Of a stretch of DNA of 57,677 nucleotides, positions 7,245 through 16,341 are shown in pieces. Source of the stretch: Escherichia phage vB_EcoP_24B. The position numbers were made by a program, and so were the translations under genes. The stretch's first letter is position 1. Each line of letters opens with the position of its first letter. The notes beneath the pieces were generated by a model. That model was not told the DNA's origin and searched no databases. It saw only the letters and a list, made by a program, of their open reading frames with translations. The stretch lies in sequence record HM208303; one strand, 5' to 3'.

Positions 7245-7394
7245 CTGTTCATATCCTCACAGATAAAAAATCGCCCTCACATTGGAGGGCAAAGAAGATT
7301 TCCAATAATCAGAACAAGTCGGCTCCTGTTTAGTTACGAGCGACATTGCTCCGTGTATTCACTCGTTGGAATGAATACACAGTGCTTATTCGTA

Positions 7395-7865
7395 CTAATA
7401 AAATACCCAATTTTCTGTTTCTTGGTTGTGTCCAAAGTTATATTCAATATCTGGTGTTGATGTATCAATATTCTTCATACCATCAACAAGAGTTGATACA
7501 ACAGCCAAATCTTGTTTGATTCTCATTAAATGGTATTTCTTCCGGCGCAATAAACTTTCAATGGCAAGTTTCTTCGTTGGGAATGCAAAAGATCTTTCTG
7601 CATTTTTTGCTACTTTCTTAATTGCATATCTATTTCTCCTTTGTTTCCATTCCTGTAACCACTGATTTGGTGCTGGTTTAAAATTAACAATCCAATGCGC
7701 AGGAACCAACCATGCATAATGCTCTGTCTGATGAAAAGCTATATATTGAAGTGCGAATATTTTTATCCCATCTTCTTCAACTGTCGCCTGGAATCTCCAG
7801 AAAACAGGCATTCCATCATGTTCAGTTTCTGATTCAGGAAAAGGTACGCTCCATGATTTTGTCAT
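7395..7865 (-). CDS. Hypothetical protein (156 aa) in an AT-rich island between ea10 and N
   Basis: ORF in the position of lambda ral/sieB; visibly AT-rich; no motif recognised. Confidence 0.6.
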   Translation of the reverse strand: MTKSWSVPFPESETEHDGMPVFWRFQATVEEDGIKIFALQYIAFHQTEHYAWLVPAHWIVNFKPAPNQWLQEWKQRRNRYAIKKVAKNAERSFAFPTKKLAIESLLRRKKYHLMRIKQDLAVVSTLVDGMKNIDTSTPDIEYNFGHNQETENWVFY

Positions 7866-7923
7866 ATCTCACCTCAAATAAGTGGTTTGCTGCCTAATTT
7901 CATTTTCTGGCGACCAACACAAG

Positions 7924-8307
7924 TCACCTCGCCGTCAGTTGTTTTGATTTCCGGTAGCCTGCCGCGTAAATGGCTACGTTTGGAAGACATACACCAGTTT
8001 CTGGTTGCTTATGTCCAAACTCATTCGCGTACACAATGGCCGCTCGCTCCAGATTGCGTCTGTATTCTTTCTGTTGCCAGATCACGTCCTGTGCCATGAA
8101 CTTAATTGGCTTAGCGTCTTCTATGCGCTCAGGCGTTTCGTGAGTACCTTTAGCCTGAATCTGCGCTCTGCTTAGAGTAGGGCGGTGTAATACTTCTGAA
8201 CTTATTGCTTCTTCGCGGGCCAGTACGCCGTTAGCTAATGCCTTTGCCTTTAAACGCTCACGACGACGAGAACGTGAATTGCCTTTGAACTGAGTTCTGC
8301 GTGTCAT
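7924..8307 (-). CDS. N: N-like transcription antiterminator
   Basis: 127 aa with an N-terminal arginine-rich motif (RRTQFKGNSRSRRRERLKAKA), first gene of the leftward early operon. Confidence 0.6.
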   Translation of the reverse strand: MTRRTQFKGNSRSRRRERLKAKALANGVLAREEAISSEVLHRPTLSRAQIQAKGTHETPERIEDAKPIKFMAQDVIWQQKEYRRNLERAAIVYANEFGHKQPETGVCLPNVAIYAAGYRKSKQLTAR

Positions 8308-8472
8308 ATAGACCTCCTGATGAACTTTGGTGGTGTGGTAGGTGGGAGACCCATTTCGACCTGTTTCGGCCTACTTCAATTCGGCAATAGTCCCGCAGGC
8401 CTCGCCGCTTTACGTGCGACATATTCCCGTCCATGAACCCTTCACCACACCCCAAAGTTCACTTTGGTTATT

Positions 8473-8487
8473 GCGCTTTGTCAGCGC
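8473..8487 (-). promoter_or_regulatory. Candidate nutL boxB hairpin (minus strand GCGCU-GACAA-AGCGC)
   Basis: 5-bp stem with a GACAA pentaloop in the N leader; a near-identical hairpin sits after cro at 11986-12000. Confidence 0.35.
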
Positions 8488-8777
8488 CGTAGATTCATAT
8501 TCGAATCGTTGTATATTCACCGCCCTGGTGAGTAATGCGTCCTGCTGACGACGATAATAATGAACCAATAGTTCGACATTATCAAGAACTATTGGTACGA
8601 ATTTTGGTGATTTATTAACTCTACGAAGTATGATTCTGATATATAAGGAAATTTATTTTTGAAAATGTGGCTGATGAAGGTTATGCGGCAGGGATCATAA
8701 CTGCATGGTTTAGCGAGTTACATCAATAAATACAATTGGTTATGTTTTTTAGGTGGGCGAACGTGAGGCAAAGAAAA

Positions 8778-8795
8778 CCCGGCGCTGAGGCCGGG
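8778..8795 (-). terminator. Intrinsic terminator closing the cI-kinase operon
   Basis: CCCGGC-GCTGAG-GCCGGG hairpin followed on the minus strand by UUUUCUUU; immediately after the 54-codon ORF. Confidence 0.5.
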
Positions 8796-8960
8796 CTAGA
8801 TTTTAAAGTATTTATCTTTTAGAGATGTAGATGTAAAACTTTTCGCCTTTGAAAATTTTTTGTCATCAGAAGGGCTTATGAACTCATCTTTTTTGTAGGG
8901 AACCGCTAATGCTGCATCACGTCTGCGAGGCAGCTTGCTTACTTCCTCGCGCTTTTTCAT
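8796..8960 (-). CDS. Small Lys-rich ORF (54 aa) directly downstream of the kinase
   Basis: Hand-translated MKKREEVSKLPRRRDAALAVPYKKDEF...; ATG 2 nt after the kinase stop, AGGA about 9 nt upstream; below the ORF-track length cutoff. Confidence 0.3.
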   Translation of the reverse strand: MKKREEVSKLPRRRDAALAVPYKKDEFISPSDDKKFSKAKSFTSTSLKDKYFKI

Positions 8961-8962
8961 GA

Positions 8963-10009
8963 TCAGTTATCCTTTAATAACCTATACAGTTTTGTAGGGG
9001 TACATCCTGAGGATATTGTTAAGTTCGTAGCACGCCTTTTCCGCCCATCATCGTATAAACGAAAACCAGTAGTAGACGAATTTTCTGCGTCAAAAACTAT
9101 AGACAGTATAGCGTCCCCAGACTTTTTTTGCCATTCGCATGTGCCGTTAGTTGGTTTCGTCATCTGTAGACGCCAGTCAAGAACGCCATCACTTATAGCT
9201 GAGAGATCGTTTAGTACATCTAGTACGGATTGATATCTTTCATTTGGATCTACATGAATGCATTTGTTCACTATTGTTATTAATTTTTTATGTATATGGG
9301 GAGGATACTCTTTTAATGGATAGCAGCCATTAATTATCGACTCTCTGAGTTGTTCAATCGTGCTAAATGCAGATCTTTCTCTTTCAAAATTATCATGTCC
9401 AACACACATTCTATATATGGTTAATCCTGCCTGATATATGTCATATGTGAAATTATAATCATTTGTTGATAAAGAAAAATATTCCGGTGGCACATGAAAA
9501 TGATATCCAAACTCAGGCGCAGCTCTCGATTCCTCATTGACTAACTGAGATAATCCAAAGTCAGATAGCATGGCCTCATTTCTGTTTGATATCATAATGT
9601 TATTAGGTTTTATATCAAAATGCATAAGACCTTTTGAGTGTATATGATAAAGTCCACTTAAAAATTGAATGGAATACCGTATTATCTCCCTGCTTGTAAG
9701 ATTATTTTTTTTCATTAATTGGTTTAGCGAACCATTATGATAAAATGGCATGGCTATATAGATATTGCTCTCACATTGAGCAGCATACTGAACTTGCACA
9801 ATATTTGGATGTGCATGTTTATAGAGAAGCCTTGCTTCATTAAAGTAGTCGTCGTGGTTAGTGTTTTCTTTTTTTTCTATTTCTTTAATCACCAAGTCAT
9901 GAGCTAGGTGTCTGTCATGAGCCAGATATACTTTTGAAAAACAACCCTGTTCTTCTAGATCACTAATCCATTCGAATTCTACATCAGCTCTTTTGTATGG
10001 AGTTAGCAT
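8963..10009 (-). CDS. Eukaryotic-like (Hanks-type) protein kinase
   Basis: 348 aa; Gly-rich loop EQGCFSKV, VIK lysine, catalytic loop HFDIKPNN, SDFG; about 100-aa C-terminal extension; AT-rich. Confidence 0.85.
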   Translation of the reverse strand: MLTPYKRADVEFEWISDLEEQGCFSKVYLAHDRHLAHDLVIKEIEKKENTNHDDYFNEARLLYKHAHPNIVQVQYAAQCESNIYIAMPFYHNGSLNQLMKKNNLTSREIIRYSIQFLSGLYHIHSKGLMHFDIKPNNIMISNRNEAMLSDFGLSQLVNEESRAAPEFGYHFHVPPEYFSLSTNDYNFTYDIYQAGLTIYRMCVGHDNFERERSAFSTIEQLRESIINGCYPLKEYPPHIHKKLITIVNKCIHVDPNERYQSVLDVLNDLSAISDGVLDWRLQMTKPTNGTCEWQKKSGDAILSIVFDAENSSTTGFRLYDDGRKRRATNLTISSGCTPTKLYRLLKDN

Positions 10010-10464
10010 CCCCTTACCTCCGCAGATAGTGCAGCCAAAACAGCTTCATTTGTTTCAGTTGTAAAACCAGAATTATCGATTCCATTTATATTGCGGTGTG
10101 ACTTCAATATTTCTTTATACTCGATCTCTGTTAGGTTCAATGATGATTTCATGCCAGATTTTCTAATAGTGTAATATTTTCTTACATCACTGCTTGAAAA
10201 TGCTTCTTGAATAACAGCTTCTATATAAAGGCGGTCAATGCTAAGATTATCAGAGTTTGATTCAGTAACGCGTATGGCAGCTAATTCAACATTATATAAA
10301 TTAAGAATGTCGAGGATGTTATTTCTCACATACTTTAATTTTTCTGGTGTGTCTAAGGTCGAAGGTATTTTAATAACATCAACACATTTGAGTGCAGACT
10401 CATTAGTGCAATATACAACAAAAGATGTAACTTTGGGCGCCGCTCTAACACCTAGTATTCTCAT
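10003..10464 (-). CDS. Hypothetical protein (153 aa), translationally coupled to the kinase
   Basis: 7-nt overlap with the kinase start; AT-rich; no motif recognised. Confidence 0.6.
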   Translation of the reverse strand: MRILGVRAAPKVTSFVVYCTNESALKCVDVIKIPSTLDTPEKLKYVRNNILDILNLYNVELAAIRVTESNSDNLSIDRLYIEAVIQEAFSSSDVRKYYTIRKSGMKSSLNLTEIEYKEILKSHRNINGIDNSGFTTETNEAVLAALSAEVRGC

Positions 10465-10531
10465 TTTTTATATCCTATTTTAGAATCAGGCCGCATCTCT
10501 GCGACCATCCATCATCCAAACGTCTCTTCAC

Positions 10532-10873
10532 TCATCCGAAGAAGCAGCAATCCGGGTTAGCACGCACAAGCTCAAGCGCATCAGTCAGCGAAAGTTCAGT
10601 ACTGTACTGATGCCATTTCATATCCTTCCGCATCCAATAGATTTTCCATCTATCCAGAGAACGTATGTACTTGATTCTTGCTGATGGCAGGATGTTTGTT
10701 TCACCTGGATTGCCCTGCCACACGGGGCGCTGTTCGCCGATATCTATCGTTTGGTCATTGATGCTATAAACAATATCCAGTTCATTGCGGATATGTTCAG
10801 GCGGCCTTATGCTTTCAATGAATTGGTGAACTTCTTTTTTTACTGCTTGATATTCAAGGTCATTGAACGCCAT
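10532..10873 (-). CDS. Hypothetical protein (113 aa) immediately downstream of cI
   Basis: Co-directional with cI and the kinase; no motif recognised. Confidence 0.6.
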   Translation of the reverse strand: MAFNDLEYQAVKKEVHQFIESIRPPEHIRNELDIVYSINDQTIDIGEQRPVWQGNPGETNILPSARIKYIRSLDRWKIYWMRKDMKWHQYSTELSLTDALELVRANPDCCFFG

Positions 10874-10933
10874 CTATCCTCCTTACCCAAACGTCTCTTC
10901 AGGCCACTGGTTACCAGCTATGTGACGATGAAG

Positions 10934-11641
10934 TCACGAACTTTTCAGCCACTCCCTTGCCTCGATGTCATCCAGATGGCGAGATTGCTTCAGAATACCA
11001 GCTACATACTCCACCTTTGCTACTTGATGATAAGGCAACGTTATAGGCCTGTGATCCTGGTTAATGCTTGTAAATTGGTATTCTCCATCTCTGTCATAGC
11101 CAAGAACCTTAATCATGTTGTGTCCTTCAACGGTTCTGACAAACACCTCATCACCCGGGAATACTTTGGTGTTAGGCTCAATGAGTACATATTCTCCTGA
11201 TTTTATTCTGGGCCACATGCTGTCTCCTTTCACACGAAGACCAAAGGCATCTGGATCATCGCTATAAATTTTGAGCCACCCATCGCGCTCTTCGGTCATC
11301 TCGATGGCACCATCAACACCAAGAATTGCCTCACCAACCACGCGCACTAACCCTTTTTTTAATTTGCCAACAAATGAAAGAGTATCTTCATCATTCGCTC
11401 CATTTAACGAAGTGCCGTGCTGAAGCCAAACAACATCAACGTTTAGAAATTTCGCAAGCGCATTCATTTTTTCCTGACGCGGTAAAGACTCAGCATTAAA
11501 CCATTTGCTAACGCCTTTGGACGAAAGAGAAAGGGCACGGGCTATAGCCATTCCCCTACCATGTTCATCAAGACCAGCTTCTTTACAGGCTTGCGCTAGC
11601 CGCTGGGCGAATTCTTTGCGCACTTTTTCATTCTGAACCAT
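10934..11641 (-). CDS. cI: CI-type repressor (HTH plus S24 LexA-like autopeptidase)
   Basis: 235 aa; N-terminal HTH, C-terminal GDSMWP serine motif and downstream Lys; divergent from cro. Confidence 0.85.
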   Translation of the reverse strand: MVQNEKVRKEFAQRLAQACKEAGLDEHGRGMAIARALSLSSKGVSKWFNAESLPRQEKMNALAKFLNVDVVWLQHGTSLNGANDEDTLSFVGKLKKGLVRVVGEAILGVDGAIEMTEERDGWLKIYSDDPDAFGLRVKGDSMWPRIKSGEYVLIEPNTKVFPGDEVFVRTVEGHNMIKVLGYDRDGEYQFTSINQDHRPITLPYHQVAKVEYVAGILKQSRHLDDIEAREWLKSS

Positions 11642-11719
11642 GAGTACGATACTAAAGCACTTGCAAAAACTTTCAGTTCAACCATAATACGTACTGAAAG
11701 TACGAAAAAGGATATTCCT
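11642..11719. promoter_or_regulatory. Divergent promoter/operator region between cI and cro
   Basis: 78-bp intergenic with inverted elements ACTTTCAGT (11668-11676) and ACTGAAAGT (11693-11701) and the palindrome CGTACTGAAAGTACG; operator boundaries not resolved. Confidence 0.5.
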
Positions 11720-11947
11720 ATGCAAAATCTTGATGAGCCGATTAAAGGTGTCGGCATCCCTGAAGTTGCGAAGGCTTGTGGAGTTAGCGAAAGGGCTGTC
11801 TATAAGTGGCTCAAAAACGGCTTCCTCCCTAAGACTGAGTTTTTTGGGAAAACTAAATACGCATCAAAAATCGAAGAGATTTCTGGTGGCAAATATCAAG
11901 CAAGCGAAATGCTTGAAATAAGCAAAAAGAACCTTCTGGCTGCATAA
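11720..11947 (+). CDS. cro: Cro-like HTH regulator
   Basis: 75 aa with HTH (VAKACGVSERAVYKWLKNG); first rightward gene. Confidence 0.7.
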   Translation: MQNLDEPIKGVGIPEVAKACGVSERAVYKWLKNGFLPKTEFFGKTKYASKIEEISGGKYQASEMLEISKKNLLAA

Positions 11948-11985
11948 GTAACACCGCTATTTTCACAATGGACATTCGTCCTACG

Positions 11986-12000
11986 TCGCTGACAAAGCGA
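11986..12000 (+). promoter_or_regulatory. Candidate nutR boxB hairpin (UCGCU-GACAA-AGCGA)
   Basis: Same stem-loop architecture and loop sequence as the nutL candidate; located between cro and cII. Confidence 0.35.
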
Positions 12001-12085
12001 GTCCCAATATATCTGACCAACTAAGGCCATATGCGTTTCCACGCATACCTTTCAACTAACTATTCACTATTGGAAATCTTAAGAA

Positions 12086-12385
12086 ATGGAACAAACAAGT
12101 TACAGCAAACTATCCCAGCGTGACGTTGATCGCGCAGAAACTGATTTACTCATCAACCTGTCAACGCTTACCCAGCGTGGTCTGGCAAAGATGATTGGCT
12201 GTCATGAATCGAAGATAAGCAGAACGGACTGGAGGTTTATTGCTTCGGTCTTGTGTGCTTTCGGAATGGCATCAGACATCAGTCCGATTAGCAGGGCTTT
12301 TAAGTATGCGCTTGATGGACTCACCAATAAAAAACGCCCGGTGTGCAAGACCGAGCGTTCTGATCAAATACAAATGGAATTTTAA
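12086..12385 (+). CDS. cII: CII transcriptional activator
   Basis: 99 aa; C-terminal TNKKRP...TERS.QIQMEF matches the lambda CII C-terminus as recalled. Confidence 0.85.
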   Translation: MEQTSYSKLSQRDVDRAETDLLINLSTLTQRGLAKMIGCHESKISRTDWRFIASVLCAFGMASDISPISRAFKYALDGLTNKKRPVCKTERSDQIQMEF

Positions 12386-13434: not shown

Positions 13435-16341
13435 ATGACTCCAAGTGAACTGAGCGACCTGCTTTGGGCGCAGGTTGACAGGGTGGCTCCGCACCTGTTG
13501 CCAAACGGCAAGAAAGAGGGGCATGAGTGGGTTGCCGGTAACGTCAACGGTGACAAGGGAAACAGCCTTAAGGTCAACATTAGCGGCAAGAAAAAATGGG
13601 CTGATTTCGCTGAGGGAGACGGCGGTGACATGCTTGATTTGTGGATGGCATGTCGTGGAATTAACCTGCATCAGGCTATGCAGGAAGCGAAAGCATTTCT
13701 CGGTATCAAGGATGACGATCACCATTTCGATGCCAAACGTGAGAAAAAATTCTCCAGACCTGACCGCAAGAAAATCGCCCGCTACGTTACCAGAACAGAA
13801 TCCCATCTTGAGTACCTGCAATCGCGTGGCATATCGCCAGAAATCGTAAAGCGCTACGAGGTTGTCAGCGGCAAGGTGTGGAATGGAGAGCGGGAACTGG
13901 ATGCTCTGGTGCTTCCGTACAAACGCGATGGTGAGTTGTTGCAGGTCAAGCGAATCAGCACTGAGCGCCCGGACGGGAAGAAAGTCATTATGGCAGAAGG
14001 TGATTGCGAACCTTGTCTGTTCGGATGGCAGGCTCTGGACGCTGGCGTGAGGGCGGTTGTACTTTGCGAAGGCGAAATTGATTGTATGAGCTATGCGCAA
14101 TACGGCATCTCGGCGTTATCCGTGCCGTTTGGTGGCGGGAAAGGCGCTAAGCAGCAGTGGATTGAGTTTGAGTATCACAACCTCGACAGGTTTGAGGAAA
14201 TATTCATCTCGATGGACGTTGATGATGTTGGTCGTGAAGCCGCAAGGGAAATCGCAAGCCGACTCGGTGAACATCGTTGCCGTCTTGTTACTCTGCCGTA
14301 CAAAGACATCAACGAATGCCTGATGAACGGTGTTACCGAGGATGAAATCTGGCAGTACATCGGCACGGCATCCTATTTCGATCCTGAAGAACTCTACAGT
14401 GCGCGAGAGTTTTACCAGGACACTATCAACGCTTTCTACGGCAAGAAGCAGTATCTGTTTAATCCACCGTGGGAATCTCTGGCAGATAAATTCCAGTTCC
14501 GTGAGGCCGAGTTGACGCTGGTCAATGGTGTGAACGGTCACGGAAAGGCATGCCCACTGAATGAGCCTATTCTTTTAGCTGATGGGACATGGACTACTCA
14601 CGGGGATGTAAAAATTGGCGATCAGGTGGCGTCAGTAGACGGCAATCCGTCAACTGTCACTGGGATATTCCCGCAGGGTGTTAGAGATGTTTACCGAGTC
14701 ACATTTGAAGATGGTCGTTATGTTGATTGCGCAGGCGATCACCTATGGGAGGTCACTAGTCGTGGATTCACGAAAGGCGAGAAACGCCGCGTGATTGACA
14801 CCTTCGAGCTGAAGCGGTTGAGTGAAACGAAGAGGCACAAAAATGGCGTTAGGATTCCTGAAATAACTGGTGACTTTGGCGACCACTCAGAGCCATTAGC
14901 ATGGGTTATCGGCTCCCTTCTCGGGGATGGTAGTCTTAGCAATGGGAGCGTGAAGTTTTCAAACGTCGAGCCATACATGATCGAGCGTATGAAGGCTGAA
15001 CTGCCTGATTACAACTTCTCTGGAGATGGTAAGGACTGGCTGATATCAACGGCGCGTGGTCAGGCAAATCCACTCATGGAGACCCTGCGAGGTTATGGAC
15101 TAATGGGGTGCACAGCAAAAAACAAATTCATCCCTCGTGTGTTTTTTTCCGCAAATAAATCAACGCGTATAGGCATGCTGTGTGGTCTGCTTGAAACGGA
15201 TGGGTATGTCGAGAAGGATGGAACGCTTGTTTTTTCCTCAGCAAGTGAAGAACTGCGCAATGGGGTTGTTCAACTGGTTAACTCACTCGGCGGGTCATGC
15301 CGGACGCGAGTTAAAACTGGCGTGACATACACATACAAGGACGATAAGCGGCATGGGATGGATTCATACGAGGCAAGAATCAGACTGACAAGAGAAATCA
15401 GGGAGGCCATCCGTTCACCACGACTCAATGGCAGATTAACTGCGCATCGATTCGAGGGCTGTGGGGTATTCGTCAGGAATGTTGAAAAAATCGGCAATGC
15501 AGAATGCTTGTGTATTATGGTCGATCACCCTCGCCACCTGTATGTAACCAGGGGATATGTGGCGACGCATAACACCGAGGTTGTCGGGCATATGGCACTT
15601 GAGGCAATGCGTCAGGGTGTGAAGACGTGCATCGCGTCACTTGAGCTGAAGCCTGGTATTCTCCTTAAGCGCCTTACCCGTCAGGCGACGTGCTGCAAGA
15701 TGCCGCCAGTGCTGGAAATTGACTCTGCATTTAAATTTTATGACGAAAGACTTTGGGTGTTTGGCCTGACCGGAACGGCGAAAGCCGACAGGCTGATCGA
15801 AATATTCGACTACGCTCGCCGCCGATACGGTATCCAGTTATTCATCATCGACAGCCTGATGAAATGTGGCATAGGCGACGATGACTATAACGGGCAGAAG
15901 GCGTTTGTTGACTCGATTTGCGACTTCAAAAACAAAACAAACTCCCACGTCATTCTCGTTACTCACTCGCGAAAAGGAGACAGCGAAGAAAAACCAACCG
16001 GGAAAATGGACGTAAAAGGCTCTGGAGCGATAACAGACCTGACAGACAACCTTTTCATCATCTGGCGTAACAAGGCTCGCGAGAGAGCGTTACAGAGAGT
16101 TCAGAGTGGTGAAAAGATGTCAGAGAAGGACGAACAGCTACTGGCATCTCCGGCATCTGTTTTGATGCTTGAAAAACAACGTAACGGCGAAGGTTGGGAA
16201 GGTGGTGTCCCGTTGTTCCTTGACGAGCAATCGCACCAGTTCCTGCAACTTGAATCAGGATCGCCATATAGCTACATCGCCAATATGCCGAAATCGGAAT
16301 ATGACGAGGCGTGGCGACAGGAAAACGTGACGGAGTATTAA
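13435..16341 (+). CDS. Bifunctional DNA primase / replicative helicase, interrupted by an intein
   Basis: 968 aa; Toprim motif (VVLCEGEIDC) N-terminally; RecA-like helicase C-terminally (LFIIDSLM Walker B-like); about 341-aa insertion with intein hallmarks. Confidence 0.85.
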   Translation: MTPSELSDLLWAQVDRVAPHLLPNGKKEGHEWVAGNVNGDKGNSLKVNISGKKKWADFAEGDGGDMLDLWMACRGINLHQAMQEAKAFLGIKDDDHHFDAKREKKFSRPDRKKIARYVTRTESHLEYLQSRGISPEIVKRYEVVSGKVWNGERELDALVLPYKRDGELLQVKRISTERPDGKKVIMAEGDCEPCLFGWQALDAGVRAVVLCEGEIDCMSYAQYGISALSVPFGGGKGAKQQWIEFEYHNLDRFEEIFISMDVDDVGREAAREIASRLGEHRCRLVTLPYKDINECLMNGVTEDEIWQYIGTASYFDPEELYSAREFYQDTINAFYGKKQYLFNPPWESLADKFQFREAELTLVNGVNGHGKACPLNEPILLADGTWTTHGDVKIGDQVASVDGNPSTVTGIFPQGVRDVYRVTFEDGRYVDCAGDHLWEVTSRGFTKGEKRRVIDTFELKRLSETKRHKNGVRIPEITGDFGDHSEPLAWVIGSLLGDGSLSNGSVKFSNVEPYMIERMKAELPDYNFSGDGKDWLISTARGQANPLMETLRGYGLMGCTAKNKFIPRVFFSANKSTRIGMLCGLLETDGYVEKDGTLVFSSASEELRNGVVQLVNSLGGSCRTRVKTGVTYTYKDDKRHGMDSYEARIRLTREIREAIRSPRLNGRLTAHRFEGCGVFVRNVEKIGNAECLCIMVDHPRHLYVTRGYVATHNTEVVGHMALEAMRQGVKTCIASLELKPGILLKRLTRQATCCKMPPVLEIDSAFKFYDERLWVFGLTGTAKADRLIEIFDYARRRYGIQLFIIDSLMKCGIGDDDYNGQKAFVDSICDFKNKTNSHVILVTHSRKGDSEEKPTGKMDVKGSGAITDLTDNLFIIWRNKARERALQRVQSGEKMSEKDEQLLASPASVLMLEKQRNGEGWEGGVPLFLDEQSHQFLQLESGSPYSYIANMPKSEYDEAWRQENVTEY
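14551..15573 (+). mobile_element. Intein with LAGLIDADG-type homing-endonuclease motifs
   Basis: Begins at Cys (KA|CPLNEPILLADG), block-B-like TxxH, two LAGLIDADG-like motifs (SLLGDGSL, LCGLLETDGYV), ends His-Asn followed by Thr (ATHN|TEV); in frame, about 341 aa. Confidence 0.75.

Follow-up and report, generated by a model that had tools for sequence, protein, structure and literature searches.

The kinase Stk of 933W-type phages as one gene of a conserved three-gene cassette in the lysogenic cI operon

The stretch of DNA analysed here (the window) comprises 57,677 nucleotides of Escherichia phage vB_EcoP_24B (record HM208303), and all positions refer to the numbering of the whole stretch. 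Downstream of the repressor gene cI, on the minus strand, lie four open reading frames (ORFs) of 113, 153, 348 and 54 residues, the third of which encodes the protein kinase Stk. All four had been proposed in a first-pass annotation made from the letters alone, and all are present in the ORF list with the same ends. The segment 8700-10950 is 100% identical over its 2251 nucleotides to the two records of phage 933W (NC_000924 and AF125520), and dozens of other Shiga toxin (Stx) phages, of both the Stx1 and the Stx2 type, are also 100% identical across it. The match spans cI, L0084, L0083, stk, L0081 and tM, the terminator, and the gene order is unchanged. Annotation was transferred with an offset: subtracting 1141 from a 933W record coordinate gives the window coordinate. 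The locus is identical to one that was annotated in 1999 and functionally characterised in 2004-2011, and is in this sense already known: locus, promoter, terminator and position are those of the 933W Stk locus (Tyler & Friedman 2004; Friedman et al. 2011). What is added here is the membership of stk in a three-gene cassette, together with a gene for a RuvC-fold protein and one for a small basic protein, and the placing of L0084, a DUF3024 gene, outside that cassette.

The operon starts at pRM (pM) and ends at tM (Table 1). According to the literature, stk is under pRM control (PMC3430580; PMC3564112), and its co-transcription with cI, anticipated in the first-pass annotation, is stated in papers that cite the original studies (PMC3564112, PMC3430580, PMC6356687). 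The hairpin and T-tract that had been proposed to close the unit were found at 8797-8776 and are annotated in 933W as tM, the end of the pM transcript. tM is built from an 8-bp, 6-GC hairpin (GCCCGGC-ctcagc-GCCGGGT) followed by TTTTCTTTG, and is the sole minus-strand terminator-like site that a terminator scan returned between pRM and pL. In the 933W annotation, nutL and N lie further left. The accessory genes are therefore in the rexAB position, as originally described: downstream of cI, with the terminator just before pL, nutL and N.

A plausible Shine-Dalgarno sequence lies ahead of every one of the four ORFs. The stop codon of the 153-residue gene overlaps the start of the kinase gene by seven nucleotides, the shared heptamer being ATGCTAA, and the 54-codon ORF starts two nucleotides past the kinase stop, with AAGGA upstream; both junctions had been read correctly before. 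The GC content is 35.5% in the three distal genes, 44.4% in the 113-residue gene, 45.2% in cI, and 49.7% in the window. The earlier description of the whole segment as AT-rich relative to cI applies to the three distal genes and does not extend to the 113-residue gene, the composition of which is like that of cI. The product names in the 933W record are 'DUF3024 domain-containing protein' for L0084 and 'RuvC-like Holliday junction resolvase' for L0083.

Table 1. Features of the cI operon, in the order of transcription
Feature	Position	Strand	Basis
pRM (pM) promoter for cI and downstream genes	11649..11676	-	position transferred from identical 933W record
cI repressor (helix-turn-helix + S24 peptidase), first operon gene	10934..11641	-	Pfam Peptidase_S24, HTH_3; identical to 933W cI
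direct repeat GAAGAGACGTTTGG, upstream copy, in conserved junction just past cI	10887..10900	-	exact 14-nucleotide repeat
113-residue DUF3024 protein (933W L0084), candidate PDC-S43	10532..10873	-	Pfam + PADLOC
direct repeat GAAGAGACGTTTGG, downstream copy	10516..10529	-	exact 14-nucleotide repeat
7-bp GC-rich hairpin, ~20 nucleotides upstream of 153-residue gene start	10489..10506	-	predicted fold, z -2.2
153-residue RuvC-fold protein (933W L0083), first Stk-cassette gene	10003..10464	-	ORF list; AlphaFold2 model
stk, Hanks-type (eukaryotic-like) protein kinase, 348 residues	8963..10009	-	Pfam Pkinase; 100% identical to 933W stk
54-residue basic Lys-rich protein (933W L0081, PHROG 4063), third Stk-cassette gene	8796..8960	-	ORF list
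intrinsic terminator tM, end of pRM (cI) operon	8774..8797	-	scan + 933W annotation

The three distal genes recur together far beyond the Stx phages. In Klebsiella, Morganella and Terasakiella, a homologue of the 153-residue protein is followed by a kinase of ~345 residues and then by an ORF of 54-59 residues. A scan of one genome per species for homologues of the 153-residue protein added 24 loci, with an Stk-like kinase as the next gene in each of them. Their sources are Xenorhabdus, Proteus, Marinobacter, Psychromonas, Thermomonas, Pseudoxanthomonas, Lampropedia, Acinetobacter, Pontixanthobacter, Sphingobacterium, Pedobacter, Cytophagales, Clostridium, and Lachnoclostridium. The loci seeded with the 153-residue protein thus total 34, from Gamma-, Alpha-, and Betaproteobacteria, Bacteroidota, and Clostridia, and the kinase is next in all 34. 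The converse scan, seeded with the kinase motif, found a RuvC-like gene directly upstream of the kinase in 78 of 80 viral contigs; the other two contigs end at the kinase or within ~560 nucleotides upstream of it.

Clustering at 80% identity reduced the kinases of the 114 pooled loci to 44 clusters, and in every one of them (44/44) the RuvC-like gene is immediately upstream of the kinase. The small downstream ORF was found in 39 clusters by an automated window and in one more, at +89, by a wider scan, and the contigs of the four clusters without it stop inside the kinase gene or within ~80 nucleotides past it. DUF3024 is present in two of the 44 clusters. Most junctions within the cassette overlap or abut (-8 to +3 nucleotides), and this arrangement of stop and start codons suggests translational coupling. 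In distant lineages the cassette lies just downstream of S24/CI-type repressors, in the same orientation, and in other lineages it lies beside integrases or an OLD-family ATPase. Because these repressor, integrase and OLD contexts recur, the cassette moves as a unit and lands repeatedly in a lysogeny-expressed slot. The three-gene part is carried by 225 of 5426 complete E. coli genomes. The evidence is strong that Stk forms part of a conserved cassette of three genes, for which we found no published statement. The first-pass annotation had called the partner ORFs uncharacterised, and a literature search indeed returned no paper describing any of the three.

Two individual loci are of separate interest. 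On the chromosome of Sessilibacter corallicola (locus L018, 3100-4857), the cassette lies directly downstream of a gene for an OLD-family AAA/TOPRIM protein, a case which suggests that, outside prophages, the cassette sits among other defence genes. In E. coli UTAK-2 (NZ_CP157162.1, 788457-791438), an IS3-family transposase gene splits the cassette and provides a natural knock-out.

The strict company of the kinase bears on the possibility that Stk alone is the system and that the small ORFs around it are hitch-hikers or mis-calls. Two kinases of this kind are described as single genes, staphylococcal Stk2 and E. coli PD-T4-6 (PMC11341870; PMC9519451), and they resemble Stk in being Hanks-type kinases that serve as abortive-infection defences. 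In the case of Stk2, a phage protein activates the kinase and broad phosphorylation ensues (PMC13276650). PADLOC models such kinases as single genes, and the papers on 933W treat stk only (PMC3681748, PMC3564112, PMC6356687, PMC3430580). Stk matches the PADLOC hidden Markov models (HMMs) of PD-T4-6 (E 1e-37; residues 20-273, the kinase domain only) and mad6 (E 7e-50), a similarity that any Hanks kinase would show. Assignment of Stk to PD-T4-6 was not adopted, given this generic similarity and the RuvC-like gene beside the kinase in place of a stand-alone architecture. The 933W-type kinase further differs from Stk2 and PD-T4-6 in having a C-terminal domain of its own, of ~75 residues, and in never occurring without both partners. 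Unrelated inserts would not be expected to travel together so strictly: the upstream gene is kept in all kinase clusters from Enterobacterales to Bacteroidota and Clostridia, and wherever the sequence reaches far enough past the kinase a small basic ORF comes next, whereas DUF3024, an unrelated insert, accompanies so few of them. A system made up of Stk alone is very unlikely on these grounds. PADLOC 2.0 contains no model for the 153-residue or the 54-residue protein.

Stk is sequentially composed of a kinase domain (residues ~12-273) and a private C-terminal domain. The former matches Pfam Pkinase (PF00069) with an E value of 2e-46 and 158.8 bits against a cut-off of 31.7 (residues 21-260; model positions 9-253 of 263). 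The nearest solved structures, the PknB/StkP kinases of S. aureus and S. pneumoniae (E 1.7e-41), cover residues 12-273 only. K42 of the VIK motif, E58, the catalytic loop H130-F-D132-I-K-P-N-N137, D150-F-G, and P-P-E176 are invariant in 18 homologues of 35-59% identity. The eukaryotic-like kinase proposed in the first-pass annotation is confirmed by the profile score and by the intact catalytic Lys and Asp in the alignment. The VIK lysine, the HFDIKPNN loop and the DFG motif that it listed are all in place; the Gly-rich loop that it also listed is degenerate (EEQGCFSKV). Further deviations from the Hanks canon are HFD for HRD and PPE for APE. Judged from its sequence, Stk is a bona fide Hanks-type kinase with an intact catalytic core. 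By sequence, D-I-K-P-N-N is a Ser/Thr-type catalytic loop, whereas the literature labels Stk a eukaryotic-like tyrosine kinase (PMC3681748, PMC3564112, PMC3430580). W279 and W293 of the C-terminal domain are invariant in the 18 homologues, and for the C-terminal 77-residue region Pfam returned nothing even at a threshold of E 10, nor does the PDB contain a match.

As summarised in the literature, stk is expressed in stable lysogeny (PMC3430580), and its transcript level, like that of cI, does not change when a related phage is induced (PMC4651098). The kinase is described as almost inactive without infection and as activated upon infection by HK97 (PMC3681748). The first-pass annotation had pointed to phage exclusion by a kinase of an Stx2 prophage; this is the abortive infection by which 933W Stk excludes superinfecting HK97 (PMC3681748, PMC3564112, PMC6356687). 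The operon might instead serve the physiology of the lysogen or virulence, through signalling in the bacterium or in the mammalian host. A eukaryotic-like kinase in a toxin-converting phage would suit such a role, and a comparative paper calls the impact on the lysogen unidentified (PMC3430580). We regard this role as highly improbable in view of the documented exclusion of HK97, the occurrence of the cassette in prophages of marine, soil and gut bacteria without a virulence link, and the report that an stk mutant has no attaching-effacing (A/E) lesion phenotype (PMC3681748).

The 153-residue protein belongs to a family of stand-alone proteins of ~150 residues. It has no Pfam, PADLOC or usable PDB profile match; ALIX and MinE, which came top in the PDB search, were discarded (E > 0.3). 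As sequence searches gave nothing usable, the fold was resolved by structure prediction alone. The AlphaFold2 model, built with 31 sequences, has a predicted local distance difference test score (pLDDT) of 91.7 and a predicted template modelling score (pTM) of 0.88, and adopts a RuvC (RNase H-like) fold. By sequence, the protein does not fall into the RuvC family: the NCBIfam RuvC equivalog model scores 12.5 bits against a cut-off of 163, and hhalign to E. coli RuvC gives a probability of 1.2%.

The acidic tetrad of RuvC (D7, E66, D138, and D141 in E. coli) is not retained. A profile alignment to E. coli RuvC places R7 on the catalytic D7 and R65 on the catalytic E66, and in the model these two arginines sit where β1 and β4 end, just as the acids do in RuvC. 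HMMER, run in full over 1.84 billion representatives, returned 253 clusters of the family at E ≤ 1e-10. Of 126 representatives of full length, 125 have Arg at position 7, and every one has Arg or Lys at position 65; R47, E68, R78, E82, E87, and E140 are also near-invariant. The position of D141 is occupied by E140 (120/126), and that of D138 is variable; these C-terminal equivalences were set by helix position, not by structural superposition.

In E. coli RuvC, single substitutions at the catalytic acids abolish cleavage, and junction binding stays. Because positively charged residues take the place of two of the four metal-binding carboxylates throughout the family, canonical cleavage should be lost and a DNA-binding scaffold kept, and the 153-residue protein is probably not a canonical nuclease. 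Known RuvC-fold pseudo-nucleases are the RuvC domain of Cas12k and mitochondrial TEFM. The near-invariant set of Arg and Glu residues indicates a conserved functional surface. The protein also departs from RuvC resolvase in being paired always with a kinase, and not with ruvAB. The RefSeq name 'Holliday junction resolvase', which annotation pipelines assign, probably misstates the function, since the catalytic positions are substituted across the family.

The same residues have to be considered for a reversed division of labour: Stk would sense the phage factor, and the 153-residue protein would be the effector, a non-canonical nuclease that Stk activates by phosphorylation or otherwise and that destroys phage or host DNA. 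Nuclease effectors are common among defence systems, and four invariant glutamates, along with a semi-conserved acidic residue at 137, lie near the former active-site elements. Both β-strand carboxylates of the DEDD tetrad, however, are replaced by Arg and by Arg/Lys in essentially all members, and it is such substitutions that in RuvC abolish cleavage singly and leave junction binding. Moreover, where PMC3681748 deals with kinase activation on HK97 infection, DNA degradation goes unmentioned. We consider an effector role of the 153-residue protein unlikely.

The 54-residue protein matches PHROG 4063 with an E value of 2.5e-39 and contains 22% Lys, in line with its earlier description as Lys-rich. 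The small cassette ORFs encode basic proteins of 50-71 residues and start between -28 and +54 nucleotides from the kinase stop, with one at +89. An alignment of 40 of them displays a near-invariant Arg at about residue 13-17 and an aromatic motif at the C-terminus; the median net charge is +7. These proteins diverge very fast; an enterobacterial subset keeps Pro-Tyr at residues 21-22.

With the roles of the partners and the trigger as we infer them below, we incline to the view that the cassette of RuvC-fold protein, Stk and small basic protein is the abortive-infection system by which 933W excludes HK97. In the uninfected lysogen, the three proteins would be made at a low level from the cI transcript, and Stk would be held inactive. 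The RuvC-fold protein may be the sensing or regulatory subunit, which would recognise a branched DNA intermediate or a phage recombination protein and thereby release or activate Stk. Active Stk would then autophosphorylate and phosphorylate many host proteins, growth would stop, and the infection would abort. The small basic protein would be the third subunit and indispensable; the role of inhibitor or pseudosubstrate is the likeliest, that of adaptor the alternative.

The trigger may be the Erf recombinase of HK97. The HK97 gene orf41 (gp41) is said to be needed for exclusion, a result ascribed to Friedman et al. 2011. In the HK97 record, erf lies between the genes of Gp40 and gp42/Gp43, which is the position of gp41, and its product is an annealing protein of the ERF superfamily (E 2e-44). 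The recombination genes of the window phage are of the Bet/Exo/Gam type, not Erf.

Several points weigh against this assignment of roles. That gp41 is Erf is presumed from the RefSeq gene order. In a test of whether prophages with the cassette avoid Erf, Erf was found near the cassette in none of the 114 loci, a count that is not usable as evidence, the flanks of 4-5 kb rarely reaching the recombination module. The invariant E68, E82, E87, and E140 might make up a non-canonical active site with nuclease activity. Co-occurrence shows that the three proteins function jointly, not which of them senses. Finally, the published exclusion phenotype is credited to stk.

A module resembling a toxin-antitoxin pair, in which a toxic Stk is restrained by a labile partner, either the 54-residue or the RuvC-fold protein, and is released by any shut-off of host or prophage expression, would account for several of the observations. 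Stk is described as almost inactive without infection (PMC3681748), the small partner is fast-evolving and highly basic, and the genes are closely spaced, each stop codon overlapping or adjoining the next start. A prophage kinase-kinase-phosphatase (KKP) module has also been characterised as a toxin-antitoxin-like defence (PMC11341870). A plain antitoxin would, on the other hand, leave unexplained a RuvC fold that is kept across phyla with an invariant Arg/Glu surface. The exclusion is reportedly tied to one HK97 gene, which points to a specific trigger. We judge such a module quite unlikely as a separate explanation, and it overlaps with the sensing scheme preferred here, since the small protein could be an inhibitor in both.

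The KKP system belongs to Pf prophages. Like the 933W-type cassette, it is a prophage-encoded, multi-gene kinase defence, and its kinase is toxic and restrained by a partner (PMC11341870). The KKP partners are a second kinase and a phosphatase, whereas the 933W-type operon lacks a phosphatase and contains the RuvC-fold and small basic proteins instead. In position, the operon corresponds to RexA/RexB of lambda. Both occupy a slot downstream of cI in the pRM transcript, with a terminator before pL, and both are expressed in lysogeny and abort the infection of a heterologous phage (PMC3564112). The two have no sequence or domain kinship, and the effector of the 933W-type operon is a protein kinase; none of the four operon proteins matches RexA (PF15969) or RexB (PF15968) in Pfam. 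RexAB consists of two proteins, usually portrayed as a sensor and a membrane ion channel.

More tentatively, the RuvC-fold protein, the Stk-type kinase and the small basic protein could form an unrecognised and widespread three-component defence, in which a dead resolvase senses phage recombination and switches on the kinase. Such a family would span Proteobacteria, Bacteroidota and Clostridia with ~250 clusters at 50% identity, in most cases downstream of the repressor of a prophage, and 933W stk, studied by itself since 2004, would be its founding member; Erf-type annealing proteins, or the branched DNA that they produce, might be what is sensed. This broader proposal is possible, and we hold it as doubtful.

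The remaining accessory gene encodes the DUF3024 protein. The protein matches Pfam PF11225 over model positions 2-112 of 112 (106.5 bits; cut-off 24.9) and PADLOC PDC-S43 over positions 1-115 of 115 (E 4.4e-41), and the gene has a strong ribosome-binding site (AAGGAGG). The direct repeat GAAGAGACGTTTGG has two copies in the window and no more, in the intergenic regions on either side of the gene. Close relatives of the cassette without DUF3024 (loci L072 and L063) contain a single related copy of the repeat between the repressor and the RuvC-like gene. DUF3024 genes also occur without the kinase. Rouxiella badensis carries two tandem copies after an S24 repressor (locus L118, 3352-4342), Rahnella has one copy at a prophage end beside dinI genes, and in a prophage remnant of Dryocola clanedunensis the gene is immediately upstream of rexA-rexB (locus L120, 4001-5731).

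The break in GC content between this gene and the three distal genes, the flanking repeat, and the independent occurrences argue for a separate acquisition of DUF3024. The acquired cargo that the first-pass annotation had proposed is upheld as to acquisition and is revised as to number, two acquisitions taking the place of one; a single four-gene cargo was rejected on the same three lines of evidence. By these signs, DUF3024 is an independent single-gene insert and a candidate defence gene. It seems to be a recurrent companion of lysogeny-expressed exclusion genes, and the protein is probably a small protein-binding factor. A literature search found no paper that mentions DUF3024, and PDC-S43 only as a prediction in one preprint. 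Taken as a whole, the region is on balance best described as an accessory operon that a 933W-type Stx phage expresses in lysogeny from pRM and that contains two separately acquired units of defence type.

The edges of the slot are shared with HK97. The segment 10881-10910, which holds the upstream repeat copy, is 96.7% identical to the HK97 sequence at the 3' end of cI, and the tM region (8725-8793) is 88% identical to HK97. Between these edges, HK97 has two unrelated genes, gp48 and gp49, neither of which has a Pfam or PADLOC match. The slot thus has conserved boundaries and exchangeable cargo, since HK97 shares both edges and carries gp48 and gp49 instead. The predicted hairpin ahead of the 153-residue gene is kept at the same spot in a relative without DUF3024 (L063), with a different stem sequence; tentatively, it is a possible attenuator of cI read-through or an RNA-stability element.

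Relatedness to HK97 extends to the neighbouring regions. The N protein and the product of a 156-residue ORF (7395-7865) share 98-99% identity with their HK97 counterparts, N and Gp45. At the DNA level, window positions 7260-8548 are 98.4% identical to HK97 over 1.3 kb, and the cII/nutR region (11940-12381) is 90% identical. HK97, the phage that is excluded, is thus closely related as a mosaic; the differences lie in immunity, the cargo slot and the recombination genes.

A lysogen of 933W also cuts the plating of lambda ~10^6-fold, independently of cI immunity (PMC6989128). The effect depends on the immunity region of lambda, and hybrids with imm21, imm434 and immP22 escape to varying degrees (PMC6989128). 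The genes of the operon are candidates for this exclusion, for which PMC6989128 names no responsible gene. A phage-based anti-virulence study had to engineer around the exclusion by 933W (PMC6989128). Prophages of the 933W type carry Shiga toxin in O157:H7 and related pathogens, and how they affect rival phages matters for phage therapy and for phage-based attempts to curb virulence. Current work on defence systems mostly passes over the 933W-type Stk system, and obligate partners bear on how Stk stays silent and how an HK97 gene activates it.

To the right of cII, the window differs from 933W and matches the Stx2a phages F451, F403, Xuzhou21, and Min27. A replication module common to these four phages is present in place of the O and P genes of 933W. 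It includes, on the plus strand (13435-16341), the gene for a 968-residue primase/helicase with a Toprim_2 domain (residues 209-296) and an AAA_25 domain (787-849). The protein is interrupted by an intein, which consists of a Hint domain (~379-424) and a LAGLIDADG homing-endonuclease domain (~579-634).

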